NCBI GenBank assembly: GCA_003557905.1
Contig: PWNH01000132.1
Span: 2,920-66,919, forward strand
Direction: 5' to 3'
DNA: 64,000 bases
Source of the DNA: Methanomassiliicoccaceae archaeon
Lineage (GTDB): Archaea > Thermoplasmatota > Thermoplasmata > Methanomassiliicoccales > Methanomethylophilaceae
Under the pieces are notes generated by a model. That model was not told the origin of the DNA. It was given only the letters and a program-made list of their open reading frames with translations, and ran no database searches. Below are positions 16,937 through 62,547 of this stretch, in pieces; within the stretch, counting starts at the first letter, position 1; every line of letters starts with the position of its first letter. A program made the translations under genes and the position numbers.

Positions 16937-16937
16937 C

Positions 16938-17831
16938 ATGGAGGATTTCACACCCCAGAGACCAGGCTCGGAGGAGGATTGGAGCGAGAGCCTCTATTTC
17001 AACTTCCACGACCGTGAGAACGACATCACGGCGTTCATGCGCATCGGCCTGAAACCGAACCGCGGCCACAAGGAGGCGTTCCTTTTCATCATGACCGATG
17101 ACATGGTTTGCGGGATGCGCTCCGCCATCCCCATCGACGACAGCGGGATGTCCGTCAACGGCCTTTCCTTCCGCAAGGAGGGAGGCGGCTGGAGACTGTC
17201 TTACAACGGGCAGTTGGGAAGCATGACCGAGGACGGGCCCATACCGATCGAGGCCTCGCTGGACATCCTTTGGACGCCGCTCAATGAGGAGTTCGACTAC
17301 CGCCGTTGCGTTGATGAGAGGGCGGAGAGGATGGCCGCGGCGGTGGCCGCGGAGCACCGCGAACAGTACGGTGAGGCGGTGGGCGCGGTGAGTCTGGGGA
17401 CCAAGCGTCTCCGCCTCAGGGGACTGGGCGAACGGGACCACAGCTGGGGGGTCCGCGACTGGAACGCCCCCCTTGAGTGGATGTGGATCAACTGCCACCT
17501 CGACCGTCGGACCTCCCTCAACCTGACACGCCTTGTCGTCGACCAGGGGGAGGTCGTGGCGGGGTTCGTCCATCGTGATGGCGAGAGCCATCCCATCGTA
17601 AGGGCCAGGGTGGAGACCCGCTATTCATCGAAAGGAGGGCCGCAGTCCTTCGACCTGGACATCACCGATTCCGAGGGTAAGCGCCACATCATCGGCGGTA
17701 GCGTGGTCAGGGAGACGGTGCTGCCGTTCGAGAAGGATGGGGTGCGCAGTCTGCTCTATGAGACCCTGTCGGAATATGATTGGAAGGGCGGCAAGGGCTA
17801 CGGCATCGCCGAATACCTCATCCGTACCTGA
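16938..17831 (+). CDS. Hypothetical protein (297 aa), coupled to the phosphotransferase
   Basis: ATG lies 1 nt after the upstream TGA. Contains GERDHSWGVRDWNAP. Coding-like composition; no confident family call. Confidence 0.6.
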   Translation: MEDFTPQRPGSEEDWSESLYFNFHDRENDITAFMRIGLKPNRGHKEAFLFIMTDDMVCGMRSAIPIDDSGMSVNGLSFRKEGGGWRLSYNGQLGSMTEDGPIPIEASLDILWTPLNEEFDYRRCVDERAERMAAAVAAEHREQYGEAVGAVSLGTKRLRLRGLGERDHSWGVRDWNAPLEWMWINCHLDRRTSLNLTRLVVDQGEVVAGFVHRDGESHPIVRARVETRYSSKGGPQSFDLDITDSEGKRHIIGGSVVRETVLPFEKDGVRSLLYETLSEYDWKGGKGYGIAEYLIRT

Positions 17832-23620: not shown

Positions 23621-23856
23621 TCGTTACCGGCGAGCTTCTTCAAACGGTCGATTATCTTTATGGCCCCCGTTACGACCTCATCATCGACCACCAGGACCGG
23701 GAATTCCAACTCCAGTATCTCGTAGTAGGCGGCCTCGGCCATCCCGTCGACGGTCTCGGCATCCATGAACTGCATGTCGATGCCGGCGGGTATGCGCTCC
23801 TTGACGTGGTCGCACTTCTGACAATCAGGCTTGGTGAAAAGGATTATCTCTGTCAT
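23617..23856 (-). CDS. Glutaredoxin-like small thioredoxin-fold protein
   Basis: 79 aa. ILFTKPDCQKCDHVK CxxC site. Its stop overlaps the kae1 start (ATGA). Confidence 0.7.
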   Translation of the reverse strand: MTEIILFTKPDCQKCDHVKERIPAGIDMQFMDAETVDGMAEAAYYEILELEFPVLVVDDEVVTGAIKIIDRLKKLAGNE

Positions 23857-23987
23857 GACGTTCCTGAAGATTGCATATCCTGATTAATAGATTGTCCCGC
23901 CTACCCGAAAGATGTATGTTTAGGGCCGATGGGATTCGTCCGGGTATGCCCTTGGGACATGCCAGTCACACAAGGGACTGTGCAAAG

Positions 23988-23995
23988 TTATAATA
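23988..23995 (+). promoter_or_regulatory. TATA-like box (TTATAATA) upstream of tRNA-Val
   Basis: AT-rich octamer about 27-34 nt upstream of the mature tRNA 5' end at 24022. Confidence 0.4.
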
Positions 23996-24021
23996 ACAAA
24001 AACGGGTATCCACGTTGCCGA

Positions 24022-24097
24022 GGGCTCGTGGTCTAGGGGTTATGACGTCGCCTTGACATGGCGGAGGTCGCCGGTTCAAATCCGGCCGAGCCCACCA
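24022..24097 (+). tRNA. tRNA-Val (anticodon GAC), CCA encoded
   Basis: GGGCTCG...CGAGCCC acceptor stem, anticodon stem TCGCC/GGCGG with loop TTGACAT, T-arm GCCGG-TTCAAAT-CCGGC; 76 nt, folded by hand. Confidence 0.9.
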
Positions 24098-24142
24098 TCA
24101 ACCTACTTTCATCTCTTCTATCATGGACCGTTTCTGACGCAA

Positions 24143-24180
24143 TTGATTATCATGAATCAAGCGCATCCGCTTGATTATCA
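24143..24180. repeat. Operator-like repeat: TTGATTATCA twice, 28 nt apart; the first copy is part of the inverted repeat TTGATT-ATCATG-AATCAA
   Basis: Read directly at 24143-24152 and 24171-24180. Ends 22 nt upstream of the MFS start codon. Confidence 0.4.
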
Positions 24181-24201
24181 GGGCCGAAGGGGGTTGTTTT
24201 C

Positions 24202-25482
24202 ATGGATGTCCAAAAGGAAGCAGTGAACAGGGTTCTGCGCCACCGTTGGGCAATATTCGCCATACTGGCCTTGGCGTATTTCCTGGTATATTTCCATCGT
24301 ACTTCCACTTCGGTCGTGGGTTCCGATATCGGGGCCACCTTCGGAGTGGGGGCGACATCGATAGCCCTCCTGGGCTCATCCTATTTCTTCGTATACACCG
24401 TGATGCAGCTACCGAGCGGCATACTGGCGGACCGATGGGGTCCGCGCAACACCGTCTCCCTCTTCCTGGTGATCGCCACGATCGGTTCCTTGATCACCGC
24501 CCTCGCACCATCCTTCGAGGCCGTCCTGGCGGGGAGGGTCCTGACCAGCGTGGGGGTGGCTATGGTCTACATACCCACGATGCGCATATTGGCCATGTGG
24601 TTCAGATCCGATGAGTTCGCCTCTCTGAGCGGGGTGCTACTCGCGGTCGGGAACGCTGGCGCCATTGTCGCGGCGACACCGCTGGCGGTGATGACCGCTT
24701 CATATGGATGGCAGAACGTTTACCTGATGCTGGCATTGCTCACCGCCACCCTCCCGGTGCTGTGCTACGTGATCGTCGTCGACCGTCCCTCCCGCAAGGG
24801 GCTCCCCGACATACAGACCATCGAACGGATGGAGACCGGCCTCACCGACCCTGCCCCGGTGATGGAGACGTTCACCGTCATGGAAGGCGTTAAGACGGCG
24901 TTCCTGGGAGGGAGGAGGTTCTGGCCCCTGGCCATTTGGTTCTTCATCATCTACGGCACGGTGATGATGTACCAGGGTCTGCAGATGGGACCCTACTACC
25001 GCAACATCTACGGGATGGAGGACTACAGCCTCATGATAACCATGGTCGGAGTGGGTATCATCGCTGGCTCACCGGTTTCGGGCCTCCTTTCCGATAAGAT
25101 ATTGAGGTCCAGACGCAAAGTGCTCATCATAGGGACGCTGTTCTACACCACTGTATGGTTCATCCTTTGGGCGACCGCGGGACAGTTCGACAGCATCGTC
25201 ATACAGGCCCTGATAAACTTCACGTTCGGATTCTTCGGAGGATGGTTCATCGTGGCCTTCGCGCAGATCAAGGAGATGTTCCCCTTGGCAATCGTGGGTA
25301 CGGTGACAGCCTCCCTGAACATATTCCCGTTCGCCGGTGGTGCCCTGTTCCAGGTGGCATCCGGTCTCGTCGTCACCTCGGGTACCGAGCTCTCGGAGTT
25401 CAAGACCCTGTGGTTCTTCGCATTCCTGTGCATGCTGGTGGCCTGCGTTGCCGCGTATCTGACGGTGGAGAGGGAACGTTAG
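24202..25482 (+). CDS. MFS transporter
   Basis: 426 aa, about 12 hydrophobic segments. MQLPSGILADRWGPRN loop motif typical of the major facilitator superfamily. Confidence 0.8.
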   Translation: MDVQKEAVNRVLRHRWAIFAILALAYFLVYFHRTSTSVVGSDIGATFGVGATSIALLGSSYFFVYTVMQLPSGILADRWGPRNTVSLFLVIATIGSLITALAPSFEAVLAGRVLTSVGVAMVYIPTMRILAMWFRSDEFASLSGVLLAVGNAGAIVAATPLAVMTASYGWQNVYLMLALLTATLPVLCYVIVVDRPSRKGLPDIQTIERMETGLTDPAPVMETFTVMEGVKTAFLGGRRFWPLAIWFFIIYGTVMMYQGLQMGPYYRNIYGMEDYSLMITMVGVGIIAGSPVSGLLSDKILRSRRKVLIIGTLFYTTVWFILWATAGQFDSIVIQALINFTFGFFGGWFIVAFAQIKEMFPLAIVGTVTASLNIFPFAGGALFQVASGLVVTSGTELSEFKTLWFFAFLCMLVACVAAYLTVERER

Positions 25483-25528
25483 CCCACTGACCCACGATGA
25501 GCCTGGCCGATGTGAAAAATGGTCGGAT

Positions 25529-25546
25529 GGACAGTATTAAATGTCC
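25529..25546. promoter_or_regulatory. Inverted repeat GGACA-GTATTAAA-TGTCC enclosing a TATA-like element upstream of catalase
   Basis: Read directly. Lies about 50-65 nt upstream of the catalase ATG, which has a GGAGGGG Shine-Dalgarno. Confidence 0.35.
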
Positions 25547-25594
25547 TGAGAATCAAGCATATACCATTGTGAAGGAGGGGTAATCACGAAAAAA

Positions 25595-27037
25595 ATGACC
25601 ACGAACAACGGCGCGGTGGTGGACAACGACCTTAACAGTGTCACCGCCGGTCTGCCGGGACCAGTACTGATACAGGACGTGCATCTCGTAGAGAAGCTCG
25701 CCCACTTCAACCGCGAAAGGATACCGGAGAGGGTCGTGCACGCCAAGGGGGCGGGCGCCGGTGGATACTTCGAGGTCACCAAGGACGTGTCCAAATGGAC
25801 CAAGGCCAAGTTCCTGTCCAAGGTGGGGAAGAGGACGGAGGTTTTCGTCCGTTTCTCGACCGTGGGAGGGGAGAAGGGCTCCGCCGATGCCGAGAGGGAC
25901 CCCCGGGGATTCGCCGTCAAGTTCTACACCGAGGACGGCAACTACGACCTTGTTGGCAACAACACCCCGGTCTTCTTCATCCGTGACCCGTTGAAGTTCC
26001 CGGACTTCATACACACCCAGAAGAGGAAGCCGGGCAGCAACCTGAAGGACGCCGACATGTTCTGGGACTTCCTTTCCCTCACGCCGGAGTCCATCCATCA
26101 GGTCAGCATTCTGTTCTCCGACCGGGGAACGCCCCGCACCTACCGCAACATGAACGGTTACGGAAGCCACACCTACAAGTGGTACAACGATGCCGGTGAG
26201 CATTTCTACGTCAAATACCACTTCAAGACCGACCAAGGGGTTGATAACTTCACCATGGAGGAGGCGGAGGTCATGAAGGGCAAGGACCCTGACAGCGCCA
26301 CCCGGGACCTGTACGATGCGATCGCCCGTGGCGACCCCCCGTCCTGGACGCTGCAGGTGCAGATCATGACCCCGGAGGAGGCGGAGGAGTACCGCTTCGA
26401 CCCCTTCGACGTCACCAAGGTATGGCCCCATGGGGACTATCCGGTGATGGACATCGGCAGGATGGTTCTGGACCGCAACCCCAGCAACTACTTCGCCGAG
26501 GTGGAGCAGGCGGCATTCTCGCCCAGCAACTTCGTTCCCGGGATCGCCGCCTCACCGGACAAGATGCTGCAGGGCAGGCTCTTCGCCTACCCCGACGCCC
26601 ACCGCTACCGCTTGGGCGCCAATTACACCCAGCTTCCGGTGAACGCCCCCAAGGCCGCGAAGATGGACAACTATCAGCGCGACGGTCCGATGCGTTTCGA
26701 CGGCAACCTCGGTGACGGCCCCAACTACTGGCCCAACAGCTTCGGCGGTCCGGAGCCGGTGCCAGGCAGCGGGGAGCCGATGTTCAACGTGTACGGCAAG
26801 GCGGGCAGACAGCCCTACGTCCACCCCAACGACGACTACGTGCAGGCCGGTGACCTTTACCGCAAGGCGATGAAGGACCAGGACCGTACGAATCTGGTGA
26901 AGAACATCGTCGCCCATCTCGGCAACGCCCGCAAGGACATCCAGATACGTCAGGTAAAGATATTCCTGAAGGCGGATGAGGAGTACGGCAGCCGTGTCGC
27001 CGAGGGACTGGGACTCAGCGCCGCCGATCTGGCATGA
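25595..27037 (+). CDS. Monofunctional haem catalase (small-subunit type)
   Basis: 480 aa. [56 protein letters not shown]. The distal His, Asn and proximal Tyr regions are recognisable. Confidence 0.95.
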
Positions 27038-27061
27038 GTCTCCGAAAAACCACTTCCTTTT

Positions 27062-28012
27062 TCATCCCCTTCTCAGCCCATGGTGGGCGGCGGCCCTCTT
27101 GGCGTCGCGGAACTCCTCGGGGCGGATGCGCCGTTTGAGCGCCCTGTGGGCGGGTTCCTGGGAACCGACCACCTTGTGACAGGGCCGGTACTGGTCCATT
27201 ATGTTCACATAGCTTCCTCGTGACAGTTCCTCGGCTATGAACGCCATCACCCCTTCGCTCCCCGCCAGCCTCTCAGGCAGCACCAGGTGCCTGATTATCA
27301 TGCCGCGGACGGCGACACCGTCCTCCACGACGAGGTCCCCCACCTGGCGGTGCATCTCCTTCAGGGCGGAACGCATCACGACCGGGTAGTCCTTTACATG
27401 CGACAGCCTCCAGGCCACCTCGGGGTCGTCGTACTTCGCATCGGGCATATAGATGTCCACCACACCGTCCAGAAGTCTAAGGGCCTCCACACGGTCGTAT
27501 CCGCCGCTGTTGTAAACCAACGGCAGCCTCAACCCCTTGCCAGCAGCCAGGTCCAAAGCCTCCAGTATCTGAGGTATGACGTGGGAGGGTGAGACCAGGT
27601 TGATGTTGTGACATCCCATGCGCTGGAGGTCGATCATCATACCCGCCAGACGGTGAGCATCGACCTCCAGACCTACCGGGCCTTGACTGATGTCGTGGTT
27701 CTGGCAATAGTCACAGTGCATGTTGCAGCCGCCGAAGAAGACCGTTCCCGAACCGTGCCTTCCCACCAACGGGGCCTCCTCGCCGAGATGGGGGCCGTAA
27801 CTGCAGACCGTCGCGTTGCGGCCGATGCCGCAAGCGCCTCTTATATCGTTGATACGGTCGACGCTGCACAGTCGGGGGCAGCAACGGCAGTCGGCGAGAC
27901 GGGACACCGCCTTGGCCGCCCTCGCGGAGAGCTCCCCGCTATGATGCAGGGAAAGATAGGACGGTCCGCTCATCGGATAAAAATGAATGATTGACGTTAT
28001 AGGTGTTGCCAT
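27062..28012 (-). CDS. Radical SAM protein (PflX / activase-like)
   Basis: CNMHCDYCQN CxxxCxxC cluster preceded by GSGTVFFGG. N-terminal CRCCPRLC. ATG at 27973 is an alternative start. Confidence 0.8.
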   Translation of the reverse strand: MATPITSIIHFYPMSGPSYLSLHHSGELSARAAKAVSRLADCRCCPRLCSVDRINDIRGACGIGRNATVCSYGPHLGEEAPLVGRHGSGTVFFGGCNMHCDYCQNHDISQGPVGLEVDAHRLAGMMIDLQRMGCHNINLVSPSHVIPQILEALDLAAGKGLRLPLVYNSGGYDRVEALRLLDGVVDIYMPDAKYDDPEVAWRLSHVKDYPVVMRSALKEMHRQVGDLVVEDGVAVRGMIIRHLVLPERLAGSEGVMAFIAEELSRGSYVNIMDQYRPCHKVVGSQEPAHRALKRRIRPEEFRDAKRAAAHHGLRRG

Positions 28013-28071
28013 CAGCTCCCCTCAGACGGTCTGAACAAGCGTTTTAAACCTGAATTGATTACACCGTCACA

Positions 28072-28146
28072 GGCGACTGTAGTCTAGCGGTTAGGACCGG
28101 GGCTTCCCAAGCCTCTAACCCGGGTTCAAATCCCGGCAGTCGCACC
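28072..28146 (+). tRNA. tRNA-Gly (anticodon CCC), CCA encoded
   Basis: GCGACTG...CAGTCGC acceptor stem, anticodon stem GGGGC/GCCTC with loop TTCCCAA, T-arm CCGGG-TTCAAAT-CCCGG; 75 nt, folded by hand. Confidence 0.9.
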
Positions 28147-28232
28147 AATCTTCTTCTCTTACGCTCCTGAATGAACACTGCGGGTTCCCTCAAAAATGAA
28201 ATATCATAGAGGACGCTACCACAGACACGTCC

Positions 28233-29066
28233 ATGGACGTAGGGGATCTGATGATGCAACTTGAGGTCTTGGAAACAAACATACCGTTGCTGGGGATGAC
28301 TTGGTTGCACCTTCTGTCCTCATTGTTGCTGCTTGTCATCGGCATAGTGGTAGCCAAGTACGTTGTCAGATATTTCCGCAAGGGACTGTCCCGCAGCAAG
28401 CTTCCGGAACTGGTGGTGGAGTTCCTCAGCCGTTTCCTCAGCGTCCTGTTGTACGTGGCGGTTTTCCTGATGTTCATATCATCGCTCGGTGTCCAGGTGG
28501 ACTCCGTGGTCCTCGGACTCTCAGCGGTGATCGGCCTGATCCTGGGATTCGGCATGCAGGACACGCTGACAAACCTATCCAGCGGGATTTGGATCGCCGC
28601 GCTCAGACCTTTGGACAAAGGTGAGTTCGTCTCCGTGGGCGGTTACAGCGGTACTGTGAATGCGGTCGGGATAATGGCCACCGAACTGCTCAGCATTGAC
28701 AACCAGCTCATAACCATACCCAACAAGCTGGTGTGGAACAACTCCATAGTCAACAACAGCCGGATGCCCACTCGCAGGGCATCGGTGGACGTCGGCATAT
28801 CTTACAAGGCCGACCTGGACAAGGCAATCACGGTGGCGATGGACCTCATGAGGTCTCACCCCAAGGTCCTGGAGGAGCCGTCCCCCGCGGTCGTGGTTCT
28901 AGGCCTCGGTGACTCCTCGGTCGACCTCCAGCTGCGTGCTTGGACGGTAAACGCCGACCTATGGGGCGTCAAGTGGGACCTTACCGGCGGCATATTCAAG
29001 GCATTCCGCGAGAACGGCATAGAGATACCCTATCCGCAGAGGGACGTCCATCTCAAGAAGGAATGA
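28233..29066 (+). CDS. Small-conductance mechanosensitive channel (MscS family)
   Basis: 277 aa. Three N-terminal TM helices, then GDFV-like KGEFVSVGGYSGTVNAVGIMATEL and IPNKLVWNNSIVN of the MscS beta domain. Confidence 0.85.
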   Translation: MDVGDLMMQLEVLETNIPLLGMTWLHLLSSLLLLVIGIVVAKYVVRYFRKGLSRSKLPELVVEFLSRFLSVLLYVAVFLMFISSLGVQVDSVVLGLSAVIGLILGFGMQDTLTNLSSGIWIAALRPLDKGEFVSVGGYSGTVNAVGIMATELLSIDNQLITIPNKLVWNNSIVNNSRMPTRRASVDVGISYKADLDKAITVAMDLMRSHPKVLEEPSPAVVVLGLGDSSVDLQLRAWTVNADLWGVKWDLTGGIFKAFRENGIEIPYPQRDVHLKKE

Positions 29067-29171
29067 GACCTGCCATGTATCATTGATGGGAAGTTCTCAA
29101 TGCGTCACCTGGTTTAACATACCCTAACCTTTTATGGTGCAATAGCGTATGTTCAAGCGCTGGGTGAGACT

Positions 29172-30203
29172 ATGATAGAGGTTGATGGTTCCAGAGGGGA
29201 GGGGGGCGGACAGATCGTACGTACCTCCATCGCCCTGGCAGCCCTTACCGGCAAGGATGTCAGACTCAGCAACATCCGCGAGAACCGACCCACTCAGGGC
29301 CTTTCCCGTCAGCATTGCACCGCCATCCATGCGGTAGCGGATATGAACGATTCATGGGTGGTCGGCAACGTCCCCGGTTCGCGGGAGATGGTGTTCCGTC
29401 CTGGTAAGGCTGGGAGCGGCGACGTGGCCCTTGACGTCGGCAGTGCCGGCAGTATCAGTCTCATGCTGCAGGCGATGCTGTTGTGCGCCCAATCACACGA
29501 CTCCAAGGTCACGATGGACATCAGAGGCGGTACCAATGTCAAGTGGGCACCGCCCATCGACTTCTATCCGCAGGTGCTTTTCCCCTTGCTTTCCCGGATG
29601 GGGATCGAGGCGGAGATGGAGATCGTCAACCGTGGTTTCTACCCTCAAGGCCATGGACATGTACGCGTCACAGTGGTTCCCGCGAAGACCATCAGACCGT
29701 TGCGCATAGATGACCTGGGTGAGGTGTTGGAGGTCAACGCGGTAAGCTACTGCCAGAACCTCCCGCCACGCATAGTGGACGAGATGGCATGGTCCTGTCA
29801 GGAGATGCTGTCCGACATAGCCGTCCTGAATGTGGAGAGGGACATCCGCCAGGGTGGCTCCACCGGGGCGGGGATATCTCTGGTGGCCGTGCACCGCAAC
29901 GGCATGATGGGCGCCAGTGCCCTCGGCTCTCGTGGGAACCCCGCCCGACTGGTCGGTGAGGAGGCCGCCAAGGACCTCATAGTGGAGATGGATGGCGGGG
30001 GCACATTGGACGTCCATGCCGCCGACCAGCTGGTGCCATACATGGCTTTGGCTGACGGCGGGAGTGTCTTCCGGGTCTGGCGTATCAGCAAGCACCTGCT
30101 GAGCCAGATGGACCTTCTGGAGACCTTTTTGGATGTCAAGTTCCATATCAGCCGTTTAACGAAAGGGTACCGCATAGAGGTGGAGCCGGGAGGGAATGAA
30201 TGA
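29172..30203 (+). CDS. rtcA: RNA 3'-terminal phosphate cyclase
   Basis: 343 aa. GSRGEGGGQIVRTSIALAALTG, GAGSISLMLQA, and LDVHAADQLVPYMALA containing the catalytic histidine. Confidence 0.9.
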   Translation: MIEVDGSRGEGGGQIVRTSIALAALTGKDVRLSNIRENRPTQGLSRQHCTAIHAVADMNDSWVVGNVPGSREMVFRPGKAGSGDVALDVGSAGSISLMLQAMLLCAQSHDSKVTMDIRGGTNVKWAPPIDFYPQVLFPLLSRMGIEAEMEIVNRGFYPQGHGHVRVTVVPAKTIRPLRIDDLGEVLEVNAVSYCQNLPPRIVDEMAWSCQEMLSDIAVLNVERDIRQGGSTGAGISLVAVHRNGMMGASALGSRGNPARLVGEEAAKDLIVEMDGGGTLDVHAADQLVPYMALADGGSVFRVWRISKHLLSQMDLLETFLDVKFHISRLTKGYRIEVEPGGNE

Positions 30204-30826
30204 GACCCAAGGTCATAGTGAACTGCGCCATGAGCGCCGATGGCAAGATAGCGGGATACGACCGCCGCCAGACCAGGATATCAACCCCCGAGGACATGGA
30301 GAGGGTCAAAGCCCTGCGCAGGTCGGTGGATGCGATAATGGTCGGGGTGGGCACCGTCGTAGCCGATGACCCCCATCTGACCGTCAAAGGGCTGGAGAGG
30401 GATGAGAACCCGGTGCGGGTGGTCATAGATTCCCGGGGAAGGACCCCGGATTCGGCCCAGGTGCTCGATGGTCGGGCACGCACCCTGATATTCCACGGCG
30501 AGGGATGCGATCGTCGGTGGGAGGGTACGGAATCGTTCTGCTGCGGAGCCGACCGTGTCGACCTGCGCAGGATGTTGGACATACTTGCTGAAATCGGCAT
30601 CGGGACGCTCATGGTGGAAGGAGGCGGGGAGTTGATAGCCTCCCTGTTCGACGAGGGTCTGGTGGACGAGTACAACGTATTCGTGGGTCCGCTGATAATC
30701 GGCGGCCGCAGTTCGCCGACGCCTGCCGACGGTGAGGGGCGTGAGGGCAAGGATGCCATACGTCTGCGCTTCGCCGGCATGGAGGTCCTGGGCGAGGGTG
30801 TGCTCCTGAGGTATCTACGCATTTGA
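30200..30826 (+). CDS. RibD C-terminal-domain (DHFR-fold) reductase; best match is archaeal 2,5-diamino-6-ribosylamino-4(3H)-pyrimidinone 5'-phosphate reductase
   Basis: 208 aa. VIVNCAMSADGKIAG, STPEDMERVKALRRSVDAIMVGVGTVVADDPHLTVKG, LMVEGGGELIASL. The start overlaps the rtcA stop by 4 nt. Confidence 0.75.
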   Translation: MRPKVIVNCAMSADGKIAGYDRRQTRISTPEDMERVKALRRSVDAIMVGVGTVVADDPHLTVKGLERDENPVRVVIDSRGRTPDSAQVLDGRARTLIFHGEGCDRRWEGTESFCCGADRVDLRRMLDILAEIGIGTLMVEGGGELIASLFDEGLVDEYNVFVGPLIIGGRSSPTPADGEGREGKDAIRLRFAGMEVLGEGVLLRYLRI

Positions 30827-30878
30827 GCATCGATTAGAACATTTTATGTACAAATGTATCATAGGAGCGTTGAGCCCT

Positions 30879-32306
30879 ATGTTGAAAGAACCCATCTTCA
30901 GCGGAGTCTACGCCTCGCTGGTCACGCCCTTCGACGCCGATGAGGGCGTCGACGAGTCCGCCCTACGGAAACTGATCTCACGGATGGTCGGACAGGTTGA
31001 CGGGCTGGTGGTCTGCGGGGCGGAGGGGGAGTTCGAGTACCTTTCCGACACCGAGAGACGCAAGGTGATAGACATAGCCGTGGACGAGGTGGCGGGCAGG
31101 GTGCCGCTGATCGTGGGAACCGGCTCGGCCAGCACCCGGATTGCCTGTCAGCTCTCAGCATTCGCGGAGGCGGCGGGCGCCGATGCGGTGATCGTATCCA
31201 CACCCTATTTCCTGTTCCCTTCCGACAAGGGATATCATCAACACTTCCTCGAAGTGTCAAATTCCACATCATTGCCGATAATAGTCTACAATCCCATGGA
31301 GAGCTGTATCGGCCGCATACCCCGCAAGGTCCTGGAGGACCTGTCCTACGTGGAGAACGTGGTGGCCTTGGCGGACTCGTCAGGCGACATGCCCTACCTG
31401 ATGGAGGTGATAGAGAAGGTCAGGGGCAGGATGGATGTCCTGGTGAGTAATGAGGAGACCGTCTATCCCTCCCTGTGCGTGGGATGTTCAGGTATGATAC
31501 TGGGTAGCGCACAGGTGTATCCGTCGTTATGGAGGGAGATGTTCAGGTCCTTCACCGAGGGCGACGACGATCAATCCCGCATACTGCAGGCCAGGGTGCA
31601 GAAGCTGTCCCGACTGTTCATGAGACATGGTCTGGCGGTGCCTTTGAAGGCGGCGATGAGGATGATAGGCGAGCCGGCCGGTAAGGCCCGAGGACCGTTG
31701 AAGGAGGGAGGTTCGCTTCTGCACGAGGACCGGGAGGAGATAAAGGTCGAGCTGGAGAGGATAGGCCTGTTGGAGAGGGCCGGTGAGTCAAGGGTTGAAT
31801 ACGACCTCCCCCTGGATGATAGGTTCTTGGACATAGGCATCAGCGCTGACGACCTGAGGAGTAACGGGGTGCGCCTGTCAACGGCATCCCATGGGAGCGG
31901 TGAGGAGAGTGCGGTCATCGATCTCGCCCTGGGGCGTAAAGATGGCCTCCTGGGAGACGTGTTCGCTTCCCAACTGGTCTATCTGAACCACGGGAAGGAA
32001 TCGTTGCCCATTGTTCTGGAGCCGAACCTGGCCACCCTCCCGCCCTGCATGATAATACCAGTCATGGAACTGCGCAACATGCGCCAGGCAAACATGGTCT
32101 ACGGCCCGGCCCAAGGTGCGATAGCCAAGGCCATCGCCGACCTGTGCGCCGACGGTCGGATCCCACATAAAATCATGGATGAATACATCATGCTGGCAAG
32201 GGTGTTCATGGACCCCAACGCCCTCGACCGTTCCTCGATATACGTCAACTTCCATCAGGCCACCCTCCGTGCCATGGAGGAACTGCTCATGGAGGTGGGG
32301 GAATGA
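30879..32306 (+). CDS. DapA-like (class I aldolase fold) :: Fae-like (formaldehyde-activating enzyme family) fusion protein, copy 1
   Basis: N-terminal about 300 aa are colinear with DapA/NanA (GVYASLVTPFDADEGV, GRVPLIVGTGSAST, TPYFLFPSDKGYHQHF, PIIVYNP). The C-terminal about 140 aa are colinear with Fae (AVIDLALG, PNLATLPPCMIIP, VYGPAQGAIAKAIADLCADGRIP, ARVFMDP). ATG at 30879 preferred; ATG at 30846 possible. Confidence 0.7.
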   Translation: MLKEPIFSGVYASLVTPFDADEGVDESALRKLISRMVGQVDGLVVCGAEGEFEYLSDTERRKVIDIAVDEVAGRVPLIVGTGSASTRIACQLSAFAEAAGADAVIVSTPYFLFPSDKGYHQHFLEVSNSTSLPIIVYNPMESCIGRIPRKVLEDLSYVENVVALADSSGDMPYLMEVIEKVRGRMDVLVSNEETVYPSLCVGCSGMILGSAQVYPSLWREMFRSFTEGDDDQSRILQARVQKLSRLFMRHGLAVPLKAAMRMIGEPAGKARGPLKEGGSLLHEDREEIKVELERIGLLERAGESRVEYDLPLDDRFLDIGISADDLRSNGVRLSTASHGSGEESAVIDLALGRKDGLLGDVFASQLVYLNHGKESLPIVLEPNLATLPPCMIIPVMELRNMRQANMVYGPAQGAIAKAIADLCADGRIPHKIMDEYIMLARVFMDPNALDRSSIYVNFHQATLRAMEELLMEVGE

Positions 32307-33751
32307 AGAGTGGAGACCTGCAAGGAATATTCACACCGCTGGTCACACCGTTCGATGAGCGCCTGAACGTCGACGAGCAGCGGCTACGGGGGCATGTGCG
32401 ATGGCTCATGGGCCGCGTCGACGGCCTGGTATGCACATCTGACGTCGGTGAGTTCGTTCAGCTGACCGAGACGGAGAGGGTCGAAGTCTGGAAGATGGTG
32501 ATAGACGAGGTTGACGGCAGGGTCCCTGTCATAGTCGGAAGCGGGTCATCGAGCACCAAGGTCGCCAAGGAGCTCACACTGAAGGCATCGGACCTAGGTG
32601 CGGATGCCGCTCTCGTGGTCGACCCTTATTTCTATCGCAGCAGCGGCAAGGAGCGCTACGAGCACTTCCAGGCCCTGAACGCCCTCGGTTTCCCGTTGAT
32701 CAATCACAACGTCTGCCGCTACACCGGTGCCGAGAGGGAATGGTGGACGACCGAAGGCATAGCCGACCTGGACAATGTCATAGGCATTCTGGATGCCACC
32801 GGCGACATGGCCTACACCGCCACCCTGAACGAGAAGGTCGAGGACGCTGCGATCATCGCCGGCAAGGACGAGGTGGCGGCCATGGCCCTGGCACAAGGTT
32901 GTAAAGCGGCCGTCCTGCCCACCGCCAACTTCATACCCGACCTCTGGAACGCGATATTCAAGGCCATCACCGCTAACGACCTGGACTCCGCCCGCTCCTT
33001 GCAGATGAGGATACAGAAGATCTGCCGCATATCCCACACCTGCCCCCATCATGTGGCCAAGGCCGCCCTGTGGATGATGGGTCGGGACATGGGGAGGCCG
33101 GCGCCCCCGGCGCTGCCCGGCGATAACTTCCTGCATGAGGACTGGGAGGAGCTCCGCCATCAGTTGTCGGGACTGGGCCTCCTTGCCGCCAAGTCGGTAC
33201 GCATGACAATCGGCGACGGTTCCTGCGACAGTTCCGTGGCATCGATACCGCACACCCCTGATGCGGTCGACCTCAGGATGCTCATAGGGGAGGCCTACTC
33301 CGGCCCGTCAGCGCACGAGGCGGCCCATGTCGACCTGCTCATAGGTGCCGACGACGGACCGGTGGGAAGGGCCTACGAAGCATCATTGGTCAATGACAAG
33401 GAGGGCCGGGTCAAGGAGGTCATGGACAGCCCGCGCTGCATGGTCGTGCCCACCGTCACACCGAGGACGGCGAAGCAGAAGAGGCATATGGAACTGGCAT
33501 CCGCCGGGGTCGTCCAGGCGGTGGAGGAGGCTGTCGAGGACGGTTTCCTGCCCCGTGAAATGCTGGACCGTGTCCGCCTTATAGCCAATGTGTTCGTGCA
33601 TCCTGCCGCCGCCAATGAGAGGCGAATACGGGTCAACAACTACAAGGCCATGCGCAACGCCATCAGGAGGGCGGTGGAGGGAAGGCCCCACGCCGAAGAA
33701 TTGGTGTGGCTGAAGGATTCCGTGAGGCACCCGACCCGCTACACGCCTTAA
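32303..33751 (+). CDS. DapA-like :: Fae-like fusion protein, copy 2 (diverged paralogue)
   Basis: 482 aa. GIFTPLVTPFDERLNVD, GRVPVIVGSGSSST and DPYFYRSSGKERYEHF (DapA-like), then GEAYSGPSAHEAAHVDLLIGADDGPVG ... ANVFVHPAA (Fae-like). The start overlaps the copy 1 stop (ATGA). Confidence 0.7.
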   Translation: MKSGDLQGIFTPLVTPFDERLNVDEQRLRGHVRWLMGRVDGLVCTSDVGEFVQLTETERVEVWKMVIDEVDGRVPVIVGSGSSSTKVAKELTLKASDLGADAALVVDPYFYRSSGKERYEHFQALNALGFPLINHNVCRYTGAEREWWTTEGIADLDNVIGILDATGDMAYTATLNEKVEDAAIIAGKDEVAAMALAQGCKAAVLPTANFIPDLWNAIFKAITANDLDSARSLQMRIQKICRISHTCPHHVAKAALWMMGRDMGRPAPPALPGDNFLHEDWEELRHQLSGLGLLAAKSVRMTIGDGSCDSSVASIPHTPDAVDLRMLIGEAYSGPSAHEAAHVDLLIGADDGPVGRAYEASLVNDKEGRVKEVMDSPRCMVVPTVTPRTAKQKRHMELASAGVVQAVEEAVEDGFLPREMLDRVRLIANVFVHPAAANERRIRVNNYKAMRNAIRRAVEGRPHAEELVWLKDSVRHPTRYTP

Positions 33752-34482
33752 TAGACGGGCTCGATGATGAACTTGCAGTAGTTGTAGGCGATGCCGAAGC
33801 ACTCGTTCTCCGTGATGATGAAGCGGCGGCCGGTCTTGTTCTCCAGGACGGACTTGAACACGCCCTCGTGGAACATGCAGAGCTTGTTCCCGGTCTCTGC
33901 ATTGGTCTCGTAGTCATCACGGATGATTATCGTCAATGGTATGAACGTGTAGACGCACACCTCGCCGAGGTCGTGCATCTCATAGAACTCCTGCAGTTCG
34001 GACACTATGTCCTCGATATCTGTGGACTCCACCTTCGTCGATAGCGCCTTACCGACCTCGCTGCCGACCTCGTACATCGCAGGATCTATGGCCAGACCGA
34101 TCGCTTCCAGACCTATCAACAGAGACCGCATCAACCCTTTGAGGAATGACGAGGGCGTGCCGGAGGAGTCGAGGATGGTCTTATGCATGTACTTCATCAT
34201 CTCATCCGAGGGATTGGTGGACTTGGCCACCGGTTTGGATGACAGGAAGAATATCTTACGCCTGTTGTCGGATGGATCGTCCCGTGAAGAGACGAGCTTC
34301 TCCTTGACCATCTTATCCAGATGTACGGAGAGGGTCGATTGGGCCTTACCGGTGATATTCGCGATGTCCGTCAAGGAAAGGTCCTTTACCTGCAGTTCTG
34401 TGAGAATCCTTTGTCGGACCGGGTTGCATATCTGTTTCAAACCGGAGCTGGTTGAGTATATATCGAATGCAGGTTCATCCAT
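33748..34482 (-). CDS. Transcriptional regulator: ArsR/TrmB-type winged helix plus C-terminal V4R (4-vinyl reductase) ligand-binding domain
   Basis: 244 aa. NPVRQRILTELQVKDLSLTDIANITGKAQSTLSVHLDKMVKEKLV (wHTH). C-terminal LCMFHEGVFKSVLE...ENECFGIAYNYCKFII is the V4R cysteine pattern. Confidence 0.7.
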   Translation of the reverse strand: MDEPAFDIYSTSSGLKQICNPVRQRILTELQVKDLSLTDIANITGKAQSTLSVHLDKMVKEKLVSSRDDPSDNRRKIFFLSSKPVAKSTNPSDEMMKYMHKTILDSSGTPSSFLKGLMRSLLIGLEAIGLAIDPAMYEVGSEVGKALSTKVESTDIEDIVSELQEFYEMHDLGEVCVYTFIPLTIIIRDDYETNAETGNKLCMFHEGVFKSVLENKTGRRFIITENECFGIAYNYCKFIIEPVY

Positions 34483-34593
34483 GGGAGCAGAGGCCCATCG
34501 AGATAATTCCTAATTAACTTTCCCGTTTAAATTCTCAAGCTATGCCATCACCTTAATCTACATTCGGGATTATTGTCTCAGCAGGGTAGTGGC

Positions 34594-35595
34594 ATGAGGT
34601 TCAAGGACAACGGAGCGGAACGGGACATCAGGGCACTATGGTTCGAGGACGGCTGGTTGGTCATGATGGACCAGCGGCTATTGCCCCGGAAAGTCGCATT
34701 CGTAAGATACGATGACCACGAACAGGTGGCCAAGGCCATCAGGGACATGGTTACCCGCGGCGCACCGTCCATCGGCGCCGCGGCCGCCTACGGGATGGCA
34801 CTGGCGGCCTTGAATGGTGCCGACCTGACCGAAGCTGGCGCAGTCATCAAGGCTGCAAGACCAACCGCCAACGACCTGTTCTACGCCGTCGACCATATGG
34901 CGGACAGGATATCGGCGGGCGATGACCCGGTGGAGGCGGCGGACGCCTATGTTTCAGCCATCATCGACAATTGCATGGCGATAGGTGTGCACGGTGCGCC
35001 GTTGATAAAGGACGGGTACACGGTGATGACCCATTGTAACGCCGGGGCATTGGCCACGGTGGATGTGGGTACCGCCCTGGCACCGATCCGCGTGGCATGG
35101 TCCGAGGGACGGAGGTTCAAGGTACTGGCATCAGAGACCCGGCCTCGTCTGCAGGGGCTCCAACTGACGGCTTGGGAGCTGATCCACGAGGGCATAGACC
35201 ACGCGGTCATAGTCGACGGTGCCGCGGGGCATTTCATGCGCCGCGGGGTTGACATGGTCATAGTGGGAGCGGACCGCATAGTTGCCAACGGTGATTTCGC
35301 CAATAAGGTGGGCACCTATGAGAAGGCCGTCATCGCCAAGGAACTGGGGATCCCGTTCTACGTCGCCGCACCCGTCTCGACCTTCGACTTCGGGACCGCC
35401 AGCGGCGACGACATAATCATCGAGGAGCGTGACGCTGAGGAGATCACCCACCTAGGCGGTGTGGATGTGTCGCCCGATGGCGTCCAGGTACTGAACCCCG
35501 CCTTCGACGTAACACCCTTTCGCTATGTCACTGCTTACATAACCGAGAAGGGCATACTCACCGCAGAGGACATCGACGCCATGAGGAGTGAATAA
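34594..35595 (+). CDS. mtnA: S-methyl-5-thioribose-1-phosphate / 5-deoxyribose-1-phosphate isomerase (MtnA, eIF-2B alpha/beta/delta family)
   Basis: 333 aa from ATG at 34594. LPRKVAFVRYDDHEQVAKAIRDMVTRGAPSIGAAAAYGMALAA, THCNAGALATVDVGTAL, VGADRIVANGDFANKVGTY. Confidence 0.8.
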   Translation: MRFKDNGAERDIRALWFEDGWLVMMDQRLLPRKVAFVRYDDHEQVAKAIRDMVTRGAPSIGAAAAYGMALAALNGADLTEAGAVIKAARPTANDLFYAVDHMADRISAGDDPVEAADAYVSAIIDNCMAIGVHGAPLIKDGYTVMTHCNAGALATVDVGTALAPIRVAWSEGRRFKVLASETRPRLQGLQLTAWELIHEGIDHAVIVDGAAGHFMRRGVDMVIVGADRIVANGDFANKVGTYEKAVIAKELGIPFYVAAPVSTFDFGTASGDDIIIEERDAEEITHLGGVDVSPDGVQVLNPAFDVTPFRYVTAYITEKGILTAEDIDAMRSE

Positions 35596-35596
35596 G

Positions 35597-36205
35597 ATGG
35601 ACGAACGTGGACACCGGGACGAGTTGGCGAGGATATGCAAATTGCTTTACGACCGCGACCTGACATTCTCCTCGGGCGGGAACATGAGCGTGCGGGTGGA
35701 TCCAGAGCACATTGTGATAACGCCCTCGGGCAGGAACAAGGGCATGCTGCGCGGAGAGGACATGATCAAGGTGAATCTCAATGGCGAGGTCATCGGTGAG
35801 GGCAGGCCCTCCATCGAGGTGGGTATGCATCTCATCTACTACCGCATGCGGGACGATGTCGGAGCGATAGTCCATTGCCACCCTCCATACTGCACATCAT
35901 TGGCAATAATGGGAGAGAGGCTCAAGAGCAATCTGACCCCTGAGGGCGCTGTGCTTCTGGGCGAGGTGCCCATAGCGCCGTACGGGACACCGGGCACCAA
36001 CCGCCTGGTGGACTCGGTACGGGAACATGTTCACAGCGACTGTCTCATAATGGAGAGGCATGGGGCGCTGGCGGTGGGTTCCGACCTGATATCGGCCTTC
36101 AACCGGATGGAGGAGTTGGAGTTCCATGCCCGTCTGCAGTTCATAGTCGGCGACCGGGCGCGGGAGTTCGATGCCGCGGAGATAGAGAGGATCAAGCAGG
36201 GATGA
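35597..36205 (+). CDS. Class II aldolase/adducin-family protein (MtnB / FucA / Ald2-like)
   Basis: 202 aa. SSGGNMSVRV, ITPSG, PSIEVGMHLIIY-like segment, VHCHPPY, MERHGALAVG zinc/His motifs. ATG lies 1 nt after the mtnA stop. Confidence 0.8.
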   Translation: MDERGHRDELARICKLLYDRDLTFSSGGNMSVRVDPEHIVITPSGRNKGMLRGEDMIKVNLNGEVIGEGRPSIEVGMHLIYYRMRDDVGAIVHCHPPYCTSLAIMGERLKSNLTPEGAVLLGEVPIAPYGTPGTNRLVDSVREHVHSDCLIMERHGALAVGSDLISAFNRMEELEFHARLQFIVGDRAREFDAAEIERIKQG

Positions 36206-59503: not shown

Positions 59504-59791
59504 ATGATCGCATCTTTCAGCATCGTTCCGTTGGACAAGGGCGAGAGCGTCAGCGAACAGGTCGCCGAGTGCCTGCGAATTGTCAGAGAGAGTGGTTTGG
59601 CCCACCGCCTAACACCGATGTCCACCGTCATCGAGGGAGAAGCGGGGGAGGTGATGGCGACCATCATGCGCTGCCATGAGGCAGTTAGGTCGGCCTCGAA
59701 GCGGGTGCTCACCCGCATCGACATCGATGACCGTGAAGGGGTCAGCGACGGCCTCGTCACCAAGATGAGGAGTGTGGAGTCCAAACTCTAA
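59504..59791 (+). CDS. MTH1187/YkoF-family (UPF0045) small ligand-binding protein
   Basis: 95 aa. MIASFSIVPLDKGESVSEQVAECLRIVRESGL...TPMSTVIEGE pattern. Confidence 0.75.
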   Translation: MIASFSIVPLDKGESVSEQVAECLRIVRESGLAHRLTPMSTVIEGEAGEVMATIMRCHEAVRSASKRVLTRIDIDDREGVSDGLVTKMRSVESKL

Positions 59792-61383
59792 CTCATATAG
59801 GTCCGCGTCTGCGACAGGCGTATGAAGCGGGCCTCCTCGAAACGGTCAAGGCTGTTTATCTCATCCATGACCTTCTCGGGAACGGCCTCGTCGACCGTCA
59901 TCAGCATCAGCGCGTTCTTCTCCTTGCCCTCACGGGCGACGACCATACCGGCGATGTTCACTTCGTTCTCGCCGAGCATGCGGCCTATCATGCCTATCAC
60001 GCCGGGACCGTCACGGTACACGGCCATGAGGAAGTCGGCGTCCAAGGGTATCTCGATGTTGTACTGGTCGATACCGACGATGCGGGCCTGCTGTCCCGGG
60101 AAAACGGTCCCGCGGACCTCGCGGGAGCTGTCGTTGCTGCCGATGCGCACGCTGATCATGTTGGTGTAGTGGTCGCACTCGTCGACCTTGGTCTCCACGA
60201 TCTTGATGCCCTTGCTCTTGGCGATGGACTCGGCGTTGATTATGTTGGTGTTGTCGCCGACGATGTGGGACAGTACGCCTATCAGGGCGGAGAGGGTGAC
60301 CATGCGGGTGTTCTTGGATGCCAGCTCACCGTAGCATTTGACCTCCAGACGGTCGACGGGACCGCTGCGGCTCTGGAACGCGAAGGATCCCATGCTCTCC
60401 GCCAGGGAGACGAAGGGCTCGAGTTCCTTGTCCACCTGCCCGCGGGGGGCGTTGACGGCGTTGGATATGATACCGTCGCGCAGGAACATCAGCACATGCT
60501 CCGCCATCTCCACCGAGACCTTCTCCTGGGCCTCGATTGTGGATGCTCCCAGGTGAGGAGTGGTGATAAGGTTGGGCAACTCGAGGAGCTTGCAGGGCTT
60601 GAGGGGCTCCTCGGCGAAAACGTCGAAGGCCGCCCCGGCGATGGTGCCGTTGGTAAGAGCGTCGGTGAGGGCGTCCTCGTTGACAATCCCTCCACGGGCC
60701 ACGTTGACGAGCAGCGCCTTCTTCTTCATCATGGCGAACTGCTCCTTGTCGATCATGTTCTTAGTCGAGGGGGTGAGGGGGGCGTGGACGGTGATGATGT
60801 CCGATTGCGATATGACCTCCTCCAAGGTCGTGAGTCTGACGCCCAGCTTCTCGGCGATGTCCTCGGGCAGGAAGGGGTCGTAACCGAGGAGCTTCATCTC
60901 GAAGGACGCGGCGCGCTTGGCCACCTCCGCACCGACACGGCCGACACCGACGATGCCCAGGGTCTTGCCGAAGAGCTCGACGCCGGTGAAGCGCTTCCTC
61001 TCCCACTTGCCCTCATGGACCGACTGGTGCGCCCATACGATGTTACGGGCCAGGGCCATCATCATCGCCAGGGAGTGCTCCGCCGCCGATATGATGTTGG
61101 CGGAGGGGGTGTTCATCACGAGTATCCCTTTGGCGGTCGCGGCGGGCACGTCGACGTTGTCGACACCGACGCCGGCACGTCCCACGACCTTCAGCTTCTT
61201 GCCGCATTCGATGATGCGGGCGGTGATGGTGGTGCCGCTGCGTATGATAACGCCCTCGTAGTCAGCGATTATATCGCAGAGTTCGTCCTCGCTCAATCCC
61301 GGTCTCACGTCCACGGGTATTCCCGATTCCTTGAGTATGTTGATACCTTCCTCGGAGAGAGGGTCGGTTACAAGCAGTTTCAT
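59788..61383 (-). CDS. serA: D-3-phosphoglycerate dehydrogenase (long form with ASB and ACT domains)
   Basis: 531 aa. GIVGVGRVGAEVA NAD site, VARGGIVNE, TPHLGAST, C-terminal ACT-like domain. Ends in TAG. Confidence 0.9.
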   Translation of the reverse strand: MKLLVTDPLSEEGINILKESGIPVDVRPGLSEDELCDIIADYEGVIIRSGTTITARIIECGKKLKVVGRAGVGVDNVDVPAATAKGILVMNTPSANIISAAEHSLAMMMALARNIVWAHQSVHEGKWERKRFTGVELFGKTLGIVGVGRVGAEVAKRAASFEMKLLGYDPFLPEDIAEKLGVRLTTLEEVISQSDIITVHAPLTPSTKNMIDKEQFAMMKKKALLVNVARGGIVNEDALTDALTNGTIAGAAFDVFAEEPLKPCKLLELPNLITTPHLGASTIEAQEKVSVEMAEHVLMFLRDGIISNAVNAPRGQVDKELEPFVSLAESMGSFAFQSRSGPVDRLEVKCYGELASKNTRMVTLSALIGVLSHIVGDNTNIINAESIAKSKGIKIVETKVDECDHYTNMISVRIGSNDSSREVRGTVFPGQQARIVGIDQYNIEIPLDADFLMAVYRDGPGVIGMIGRMLGENEVNIAGMVVAREGKEKNALMLMTVDEAVPEKVMDEINSLDRFEEARFIRLSQTRTYMS

Positions 61384-62444: not shown

Positions 62445-62547
62445 AACTACCCTCCTTCATCAGTGCCAGCCCTTGCGGGCGACGACTGTGCCCTAAATGT
62501 AGTGATGTTATAAAGTTTCCGACCGTAGCCACAGGGTATCGGGAGGT

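Follow-up and report, generated by a model that had tools for sequence, protein, structure and literature searches.

What is the role of two adjacent genes that each join a barrel of the pyruvate-aldolase type to a domain resembling formaldehyde-activating enzyme (Fae)? The genes lie in a stretch of 64,000 nucleotides (contig PWNH01000132.1, positions 2,920 to 66,919) from a Methanomassiliicoccaceae archaeon, hereafter called the window, which is housekeeping DNA of a Methanomassiliicoccales-type archaeon. They had been singled out in an earlier note on this DNA as translationally coupled tandem paralogues with DapA-like and Fae-like halves. Two plus-strand open reading frames (ORFs), 30846-32306 (486 amino acids, aa) and 32303-33751 (482 aa), are indeed found, sharing an ATGA overlap at 32303-32306, and every motif quoted in the note is present in the translations. 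The two genes encode the A and B subunits of a conserved, uncharacterised DHDPS-Fae family, and derive from one old duplication. Judged from its residues, the window pair is excluded from forming the Schiff base of class I aldolases, and may work as a Fae-like heteromer with barrels of another kind.

Domain architecture of the two proteins

The first protein (copy 1) is numbered here on the 486-aa ORF. Lys161, Thr44, Tyr133 and Arg138 refer to E. coli DapA, His22 and Asp24 to Fae. Profile searches detect both domains in both proteins. The Pfam domain DHDPS (PF00701) is matched at residues 18-287 of copy 1 (E 7.5e-58) and 6-273 of copy 2 (E 5.2e-48), Fae (PF08714) at residues 349-479 (E 1.1e-30) and 328-478 (E 3.5e-30), respectively. 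The Fae scores, 107.2 and 105.5 bits, both exceed the gathering score of 27, and the C-terminal domains align with nearly the whole of M. extorquens Fae (1Y5Y; E 8.8e-19 and 2.5e-15). A linker of about 35 residues and a Fae-like domain of about 150 residues are thereby added to a DapA-type barrel. Aligned over about 470 residues, the copies show 33% identity (E 2e-75), in keeping with the tandem paralogy proposed.

Models specific for single enzymes score lower. TIGR00674 (DapA, NCBIfam) gives 180.9 bits with copy 1 and 134.4 with copy 2, both below the cut-off of 206.15; TIGR03126 (Fae) gives 104.7 and 116.5 bits, both below the equivalog-domain cut-off of 118.05. NF009833 (Fae-Hps) is matched only at model positions 2-160, corresponding to the Fae part, with 100.8 and 78.1 bits versus a cut-off of 274.

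AlphaFold2 yields confident models for each copy (pLDDT 89.8 and predicted TM score, pTM, 0.89 for copy 2; pLDDT 85.5 and pTM 0.70 for copy 1). The barrel of the copy 2 model is superposed by Foldseek on DapA 2YXG with a target TM score of 0.94 and a root mean square deviation of 1.6 Å. When the same model is searched against the PDB, every matching chain is limited to the barrel (query TM score up to 0.58), and none spans both domains.

A family of paired A and B subunits

At least 296 species genomes, bacterial and archaeal, host relatives of the pair (296 in a scan with one genome per species). The best 80 of the 296, from which the taxonomic make-up was read, belong to Methanomassiliicoccales/Thermoplasmata and mostly to Anaerolineae/Chloroflexota. 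They include single metagenome-assembled genomes (MAGs) of Myxococcales, Brocadiia and Thermodesulfobacteriota, and no cultured isolate. In about 63 of 85 loci a B-type gene (about 488 aa) lies downstream of an A-type gene (about 475 aa), both on one strand, an order that prevails across Chloroflexota and Thermoplasmatota. A and B sequences are reciprocally monophyletic in a neighbour-joining tree, copy 1 falling in the A clade and copy 2 in the B clade. The duplication is therefore old, and A and B are fixed, non-equivalent subunit types and not recent paralogues. Copy 1 shares 46-51% identity with the A-type proteins found in other genomes; the figures rise to 92% and 89% for L006 and L007, two soda-lake Methanomassiliicoccales MAGs that are the nearest relatives of the window. 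A protein 100% identical to copy 2 (P0121) is found in four independent assemblies.

Among 1.84 billion representative sequences clustered at 50% identity, the full two-domain match is confined to about 15 clusters, some of which come from Loki-, Thor- and Korarchaeota. These archaea feature a single, unsplit DHDPS-Fae gene (L092:8001-9491; proteins P0243, P0245 and P0252). The fusion from Lokiarchaeota reaches 191 bits with TIGR03126 and, because it keeps His22 and the GPAQ/loop features together, may resemble the ancestor that preceded the split. Family members are mostly named '4-hydroxy-tetrahydrodipicolinate synthase' in databases, rarely 'formaldehyde-activating enzyme'. The earlier note had been unable to link the fusion to any described pathway, and a full-text literature search likewise found no paper on a DHDPS-Fae fusion. 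The pair is a real, two-subunit form of the 'lyase fused to Fae' theme, with no description in the sources searched. The fixed A and B types, the lack of His22 in the Fae-like domain of copy 1, the folate-based hosts and the DapA naming in databases are all points that the note did not contain.

Barrels without the Schiff-base lysine

In alignments to 2YXG and 3HIJ the position of Lys161 is occupied by Ala176 in copy 1 (31371-31373, within 'VVALADSSG') and by Leu163 in copy 2 (32789-32791, within 'VIGILDATG'). Other active-site positions are changed as well. In copy 1 Thr44 is replaced by Ala59 (31020-31022), Thr45 by Glu60, Tyr107 by Phe122 and the GHD motif by Ser201-Asn202-Glu203; Tyr133 is retained as Tyr148. 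In copy 2 the replacements are Asp47 for Thr44, Val48 for Thr45, Phe110 for Tyr107, His135 for Tyr133 and Cys138 for a proline, and Cys140 and His144, both near-invariant in the family, have become Tyr and Glu. The GTTGE motif thus reads GAEGE in copy 1 and SDVGE in copy 2.

None of this is a feature of the family at large. Lys161, Thr44, Thr45 and Tyr133 are retained in 79 of 81 A and 57 of 59 B proteins, the only exceptions being found in the window, L006 and L007, and the Schiff-base motifs persist in every other representative, even at 29% identity. The three species constitute a lysine-less lineage, in which T59A, T60E, IPQ→PME, K176A and GHD→SNE are fixed in A, and T47D, T48V, Y135H, P138C, Q139R, H144E and K163L in B, all at positions homologous to DapA active-site residues. 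A relocated lysine was considered and rejected, as the only Lys gained specifically in this lineage (D201K, in B) is Ser in L006. A sequencing or assembly artefact was also discarded, since three species and four independent assemblies share the substitutions, each of which takes two or more nucleotide changes.

The earlier note had compared the pair to Fae-Hps, suggesting by analogy a module for C1/aldehyde channelling or pterin handling. Taken literally, each protein would be a working class I aldolase that passes formaldehyde, released or consumed, on to the Fae domain it carries. In favour, the two-domain design is real, and the single-chain pTM of 0.89 implies that the domains are fixed relative to each other. 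Pyruvate-binding and Schiff-base residues are intact in the rest of the family, and Arg138 is replaced by Val or Thr in A and by Cys in B, which would suit a small uncharged aldehyde; the analogy is chemically plausible for these Lys-bearing relatives. It fails as stated for the window pair, because both barrels lack the Schiff-base lysine and the Thr-Thr pair. There is no conserved replacement lysine, the K→A and K→L changes require at least two nucleotide substitutions each and are seen in independent assemblies, and the Fae-like domain of copy 1 lacks His22. A working aldolase channel is accordingly improbable in the window proteins.

Even less can be said for taking the annotation at face value, that is for genes encoding the DapA of lysine/diaminopimelate synthesis. 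The best sequence and fold matches in the PDB are DapA structures, many sources use the DapA name, and typical family members narrowly pass the TIGR00674 cut-off (211-242 bits, the range being 204-242 in Lys-bearing relatives). The window proteins (181 and 134 bits) remain below it, and have neither the Schiff-base Lys nor Thr44/45. Arg138, which in DapA binds the carboxylate of aspartate-semialdehyde, is absent in every family member: it is found in none of 81 A proteins, which have Val, Thr, Cys, Ala or Ser in this column, and in none of 59 B proteins, which have Cys, Thr, Tyr or Ala. Nor does DapA have a Fae-like domain at its C-terminus, or occur as an obligate A/B pair. A role as DapA deserves practically no credit, and the database name is wrong for the whole family, given the missing Arg138 and the extra domain. 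Hundreds of genomes of uncultured anaerobes (Anaerolineae, Methanomassiliicoccales, Thermoplasmata and Asgard archaea) carry this automatic annotation, and lysine-pathway reconstructions made for them may be wrong, as the family lacks the substrate-binding arginine of DapA and has an additional domain.

B-type proteins feature a near-invariant Cys and His (YNIPQC...H) in the region of DapA Arg138. In window copy 2 (residues 138-144, 32714-32734) the two are replaced by Y140 and E144, and a Cys (C138) is found two residues earlier.

Selection on the lysine-less lineage

Synonymous divergence (dS) among the three lysine-less species is 0.5-0.8, and the reading frames are intact. The ratio of nonsynonymous to synonymous divergence (dN/dS) is 0.058-0.091 in the barrels and 0.08-0.16 in the Fae parts. 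Such low values denote strong purifying selection, and no decay. Lys-bearing Methanomassiliicoccales share 70-77% identity with one another in A and B, exceeding the conservation of neighbour genes. The window proteins are 47-54% identical to theirs, although neighbour genes are as similar as usual. The low identity of the pair next to normally conserved neighbours points to a burst of change specific to the pair, later followed by constraint. A general acidification of the halophile type was rejected as cause of the divergence, because flanking genes show no extra divergence. Lysine-less and Lys-bearing pairs share their synteny, which includes genes for an MsvR-like regulator, an MtnA-like isomerase, a class II aldolase and Nop. 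Sitting in the same syntenic slot, the lysine-less pair is an orthologue changed in place. Considering columns at least 95% conserved in the family, 48 of 187 are altered in the window barrels versus 7 of 82 in the Fae parts (Fisher test of barrel versus Fae losses, p = 0.002 for B and 0.19 for A).

The simultaneous loss of catalytic residues in both subunits, the acceleration of the branch and the absence from the window of X and X′, two partner genes described below, could all be signs of pseudo-enzymes on the way to gene loss after their pathway became dispensable. A relic is not expected to keep intact frames in three species at the dS observed, nor a low dN/dS in every domain. Moreover, the pair keeps every Fae-like residue that is invariant in the family and most of the invariant barrel residues, and translational coupling and ribosome-binding sites are preserved. 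That the pair is decaying is very improbable.

The burst followed by strong purifying selection would fit barrels that acquired a new function, with a different catalytic or binding site, for example metal-assisted or thiol-based, and a reaction unlike that of the rest of the family. T60E, Q152E and D203E in A, and T47D, Y135H, P138C, Q139R and H144E in B, are located at DapA active-site positions and fixed in the three species. Asp47 and His135 occupy the positions of Thr44 and Tyr133, which in DapA are hydrogen-bonded partners. On the other hand, no metal- or thiol-site motif could be matched to a known family, no new neighbour gene suggests a new pathway, and the replacements could be compensatory and purely structural. 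A new function is possible, if doubtful, and is taken as the main rival of the reading favoured here.

Complementary Fae-like domains

The Fae-like domains of the two copies have degenerated in different parts. Copy 2 keeps His22 (H342, 33326-33328), Asp24 (D344) and the C-terminal RHP (H476-P477), and has lost FGPAQ along with seven residues of the 50s loop (Fae residues about 50-60). In copy 1 the position of His22 is taken by V357 (31914-31916), Asp24 is kept (D359), as are the 50s loop (EPNL) and YGPAQ (Y419-Q423), and the C-terminal HP tail is missing. In neither window copy are an AHIDL-type His22/Asp24 and FGPAQ found together in one chain. All residues of the Fae-like domains that are invariant in the family are nonetheless retained in the window proteins.

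The same division holds for the family. All 59 B proteins have His22 and Asp24; B also keeps the RHP tail, and has the loop deletion and no FGPAQ. A proteins have His22 in only 6 of 81 cases, Gln or another residue being found otherwise; they feature invariant EPNL and Y/F-G-P-x-Q, and no tail. This complementary degeneracy suggests a composite site formed by A and B. Fae is said to be a homopentamer (so Acharya and colleagues, in 2005), and the paper on its crystal structure reportedly places the active site between neighbouring subunits.

It may also be imagined that the Fae-like domains serve only as an oligomerisation or ligand-binding fold, in a complex that would have nothing to do with formaldehyde. 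Use of tetrahydromethanopterin (H4MPT) is not known from the hosts, both domains score below the Fae equivalog cut-off, neither has the full set of Fae features, and no genes of one-carbon (C1) metabolism are present in the 64-kb window, a domain survey of which detected no folate, H4MPT, Hps or Phi genes. Yet in bacteria and archaea alike, B invariably keeps His22, Asp24 and the C-terminal HP, and A invariably keeps (F/Y)GPxQ, a pattern expected of catalytic or ligand-contact residues, and the single-gene form of Lokiarchaeota has a full-scoring Fae domain. A role outside C1 metabolism is considered unlikely.

Proposed function

The favoured reading, held tentatively and with less than even confidence, is that the window pair encodes a Fae-like heteromer handling formaldehyde and a pterin, with barrels that are no aldolases. 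A and B would assemble into a hetero-oligomer, the Fae-like domains forming the composite site at the A/B interface. In the wider family the barrels would catalyse a pyruvate-dependent aldol or retro-aldol reaction with formaldehyde (4-hydroxy-2-oxo acid ⇌ pyruvate + HCHO); the small residues at the Arg138 position fit a small aldehyde partner. This step might be coupled to the conversion HCHO ⇌ methylene-tetrahydropterin. The candidate pterin is probably tetrahydrofolate, as no use of H4MPT is known from the hosts. Folate would be expected in Anaerolineae, which are bacteria. In Methanomassiliicoccales H4MPT has no known role, and a complete C1-tetrahydrofolate pathway is present (PMC6147122). 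Synthetic methylotrophy makes use of the condensation of pyruvate and formaldehyde to 4-hydroxy-2-oxobutanoate, which so far is known solely as a promiscuous, 'non-native' reaction (PMC8879981). In the window pair the Schiff-base step would be gone, and the barrels would be kept under constraint as a scaffold or for ligand binding.

Several data weigh against this reading. Some genomes carry A or B without the other nearby, although the missing gene may lie elsewhere. Complementarity could be put to a test in A genes with no adjacent B; these lack His22 as well, having K, Q or R instead, and lend no support. The Fae-like domains of the window are also strongly diverged (49-54% versus 75-80% identity) and, being below the NCBIfam Fae cut-off, may have changed their activity too. 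With a dN/dS of 0.06, the barrels are under no less constraint than the Fae parts, perhaps more than a passive scaffold would need, and the fixed polar or charged residues E60, E152 and E203 in A, and D47, H135, C138, R139 and E144 in B, hint at a new active site. Finally, the partners X and X′ of other lineages are missing from the window, and with them the context of a pathway.

A broader scheme would accommodate both the family and its remodelled branch. The family, together with X and X′, would directly connect pyruvate with one-carbon metabolism, acting as a class I aldolase that forms or splits 4-hydroxy-2-oxobutanoate or a related 4-hydroxy-2-oxo acid. Its composite A/B site would exchange formaldehyde with a tetrahydropterin, probably folate. 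In the soda-lake lineage the scaffold would have been rebuilt for a new chemistry around a lysine-independent site, to which B would contribute Asp47-His135-Cys138 and A a Glu cluster. Taken as a whole, this scheme is quite unlikely to hold.

Comparison with known systems

In the Fae-Hps of methanogens (NF009833), as in the pair, a Fae-family domain is covalently joined to a carbon-carbon lyase barrel, and for the Lys-bearing relatives the likeness extends to an aldolase making or using an aldehyde beside a domain that condenses formaldehyde and pterin. Fae is N-terminal in Fae-Hps, and Hps has the orotidine monophosphate decarboxylase fold, whereas here Fae is C-terminal and the barrel is of the DHDPS/NanA fold. 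Moreover, the subunits are two and non-equivalent, the hosts are folate-based, and the barrels of the window lack the catalytic lysine.

Class I pyruvate aldolases of the DapA/NanA type (PF00701; 2YXG, 1DHP) have the same (β/α)8 fold and about 27-31% identity, and share GTTGE, YN and the Schiff-base Lys with Lys-bearing members. They differ from the window proteins, which lack Lys161 and Thr44/45 and, in copy 2, Tyr133, and from the whole family for the missing Arg138, the Fae-like addition and the obligate A/B pair.

M. extorquens Fae (1Y5Y/1Y60; TIGR03126) aligns over nearly its full length (E 1e-15 to 1e-18), sharing His22, Asp24 and the C-terminal HP with copy 2, and the 50s loop and GPAQ with copy 1. 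It is a free 18-kDa protein, unlike the fused domains described here, which have partial feature sets and scores below the equivalog cut-off, and reside in hosts not known to make H4MPT.

Serine hydroxymethyltransferase, GlyA, and ketopantoate hydroxymethyltransferase, PanB, are at most functional analogues, in that the aldol or retro-aldol reaction proposed for the family would exchange a one-carbon fragment with a tetrahydropterin without free formaldehyde. No sequence or fold relationship links them to the family, GlyA depends on pyridoxal phosphate and PanB on a metal, and the analogy fails for the lysine-less proteins of the window. If correct, the proposal would make the family a third, non-homologous solution to hydroxymethyl transfer of the GlyA/PanB type, and a natural counterpart of a step of the engineered 'homoserine cycle'. 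The finding of a Fae-like domain on a pyruvate aldolase, in hosts not known for H4MPT, points to a connection of formaldehyde or C1 carriers with central 2-oxo-acid metabolism that has yet to be described. The lysine-less lineage is a natural experiment, which could separate the role of the Fae-like domains from that of the barrels, or reveal a repurposed barrel.

Gene structure and features

Features of the pair and of other genes mentioned in the text are listed in Table 1. The start of copy 1 is most likely the second ATG, at 30879, giving a protein of 475 aa. This is the length given by gene callers and found in all relatives, the AGGAG and TATA-like signals precede this codon, and pLDDT is below 50 for residues 1-13 of the long ORF. 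Both signals fall within the first codons of the 486-aa ORF. A scan of the window for bacterial-type promoters and terminators was uninformative, the host being an archaeon.

Table 1. Coordinates of features in the window
Feature	Position	Strand	Basis or remark
Leader of copy 1 (short intergenic)	30841-30878	+	Read from the sequence; weak evidence
TATA-like TTTTATGT	about 30843-30850	+	In the leader of copy 1; weak evidence
AGGAG ribosome-binding site	about 30864-30868	+	About 10 nucleotides 5' of ATG 30879; weak evidence
Copy 1, A-type subunit, 475 aa	30879-32306	+	Mechanical ORF starts at 30846
Copy 1 barrel, DHDPS/NanA-fold (β/α)8, active site remodelled	30897-31775	+	Pfam, alignments
Copy 1 Fae-like domain	31878-32285	+	Pfam, alignment to 1Y5Y
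Copy 2, B-type subunit, 482 aa	32303-33751	+	ATGA start over the copy 1 stop; ribosome-binding site GGAGGTGGGG upstream
Copy 2 barrel, DHDPS/NanA fold, active site remodelled	32318-33178	+	Pfam, alignments, AlphaFold2, fold match
Copy 2 Fae-like domain	33278-33736	+	Pfam, alignment to 1Y5Y
MsvR-like regulator (HTH_5 + V4R)	33748-34482	-	Convergent with copy 2, overlapping its 3' end by 4 nucleotides
MtnA-type S-methyl-5-thioribose-1-phosphate isomerase, then overlapping class II aldolase	34573-36205	+	Isomerase 393 bits; aldolase FucA/MtnB-like, below all cut-offs
PPDK_N + PEP-utiliser mobile-domain protein (845 aa), then DUF7065/DUF7064 protein	14399-17831	+	Second protein: weak Rv3169-family match
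SerA-type 3-phosphoglycerate dehydrogenase (ACT domain), class V and class I/II aminotransferases	59788-63702	-	

Partner genes X and X′

A gene of either of two families, called X and X′, is found directly upstream of A in 42 of 85 loci, as well as in loci of Lokiarchaeota. X (about 316 aa) is present in 27 loci from Chloroflexota, Thermoplasmata and one Myxococcales MAG (L015:7024-7965, L019:6595-7536, L003:8183-9133 and 24 others; alignment A4). It has a mean column identity of 73% and the motifs TPGPR, FRGFLVxDEG, KVSIxAGHA and PCYFKIEPG. Several Chloroflexota loci have a transaldolase/FSA gene ahead of X. X′ (about 420 aa) is located upstream of A in 15 Anaerolineae loci (L068:3146-4414 and 7 others; L032:6477-7727 and 6 others; alignment A5), the second Anaerolineae group being a distant homologue (E about 1e-9), and precedes the single fusion gene in Lokiarchaeota (L092:6683-7966). 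Copies from Lokiarchaeota and Anaerolineae are 60-66% identical, which implies a recent transfer of the module between domains of life. The X groups are weakly linked to each other by hhalign. Neither X nor X′ has relatives in Pfam, NCBIfam or the PDB, whether searched with single sequences or profiles. No tblastn match to either was obtained in the window, and in other Methanomassiliicoccales loci they are likewise not adjacent to the pair.

Neighbouring genes in the window

The MsvR-like regulator scores 214.5 bits with NF053755 (cut-off 220) and is a conserved neighbour of the pair, which it flanks in 12 loci of Methanomassiliicoccales. In methanogens, MsvR acts as a redox-sensing regulator.

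The MtnA-type isomerase and class II aldolase genes are conserved beside the fusion pair in Methanomassiliicoccales, and together resemble the dihydroxyacetone phosphate (DHAP) shunt for 5'-deoxynucleosides and 5'-methylthioadenosine (MTA).

Kae1/TsaD is located close to the pair in the related MAGs L005 and L013; in the window about 7 kb of genes (about 23700-30826) are interposed. This block encodes a major facilitator superfamily (MFS) transporter, a 480-aa haem catalase (E 1e-198), a radical S-adenosylmethionine (SAM) protein, an MscS channel, RtcA and an archaeal riboflavin reductase (TIGR01508). The monofunctional catalase is worth mentioning, the host being a presumed strict anaerobe.

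Farther upstream lie the PPDK_N protein gene and, after it, the gene of the DUF7065/DUF7064 protein. At the other end of the window, the association of the SerA-type dehydrogenase with two aminotransferases is likely a serine-biosynthesis cluster, the only C1-adjacent metabolism seen in the window.

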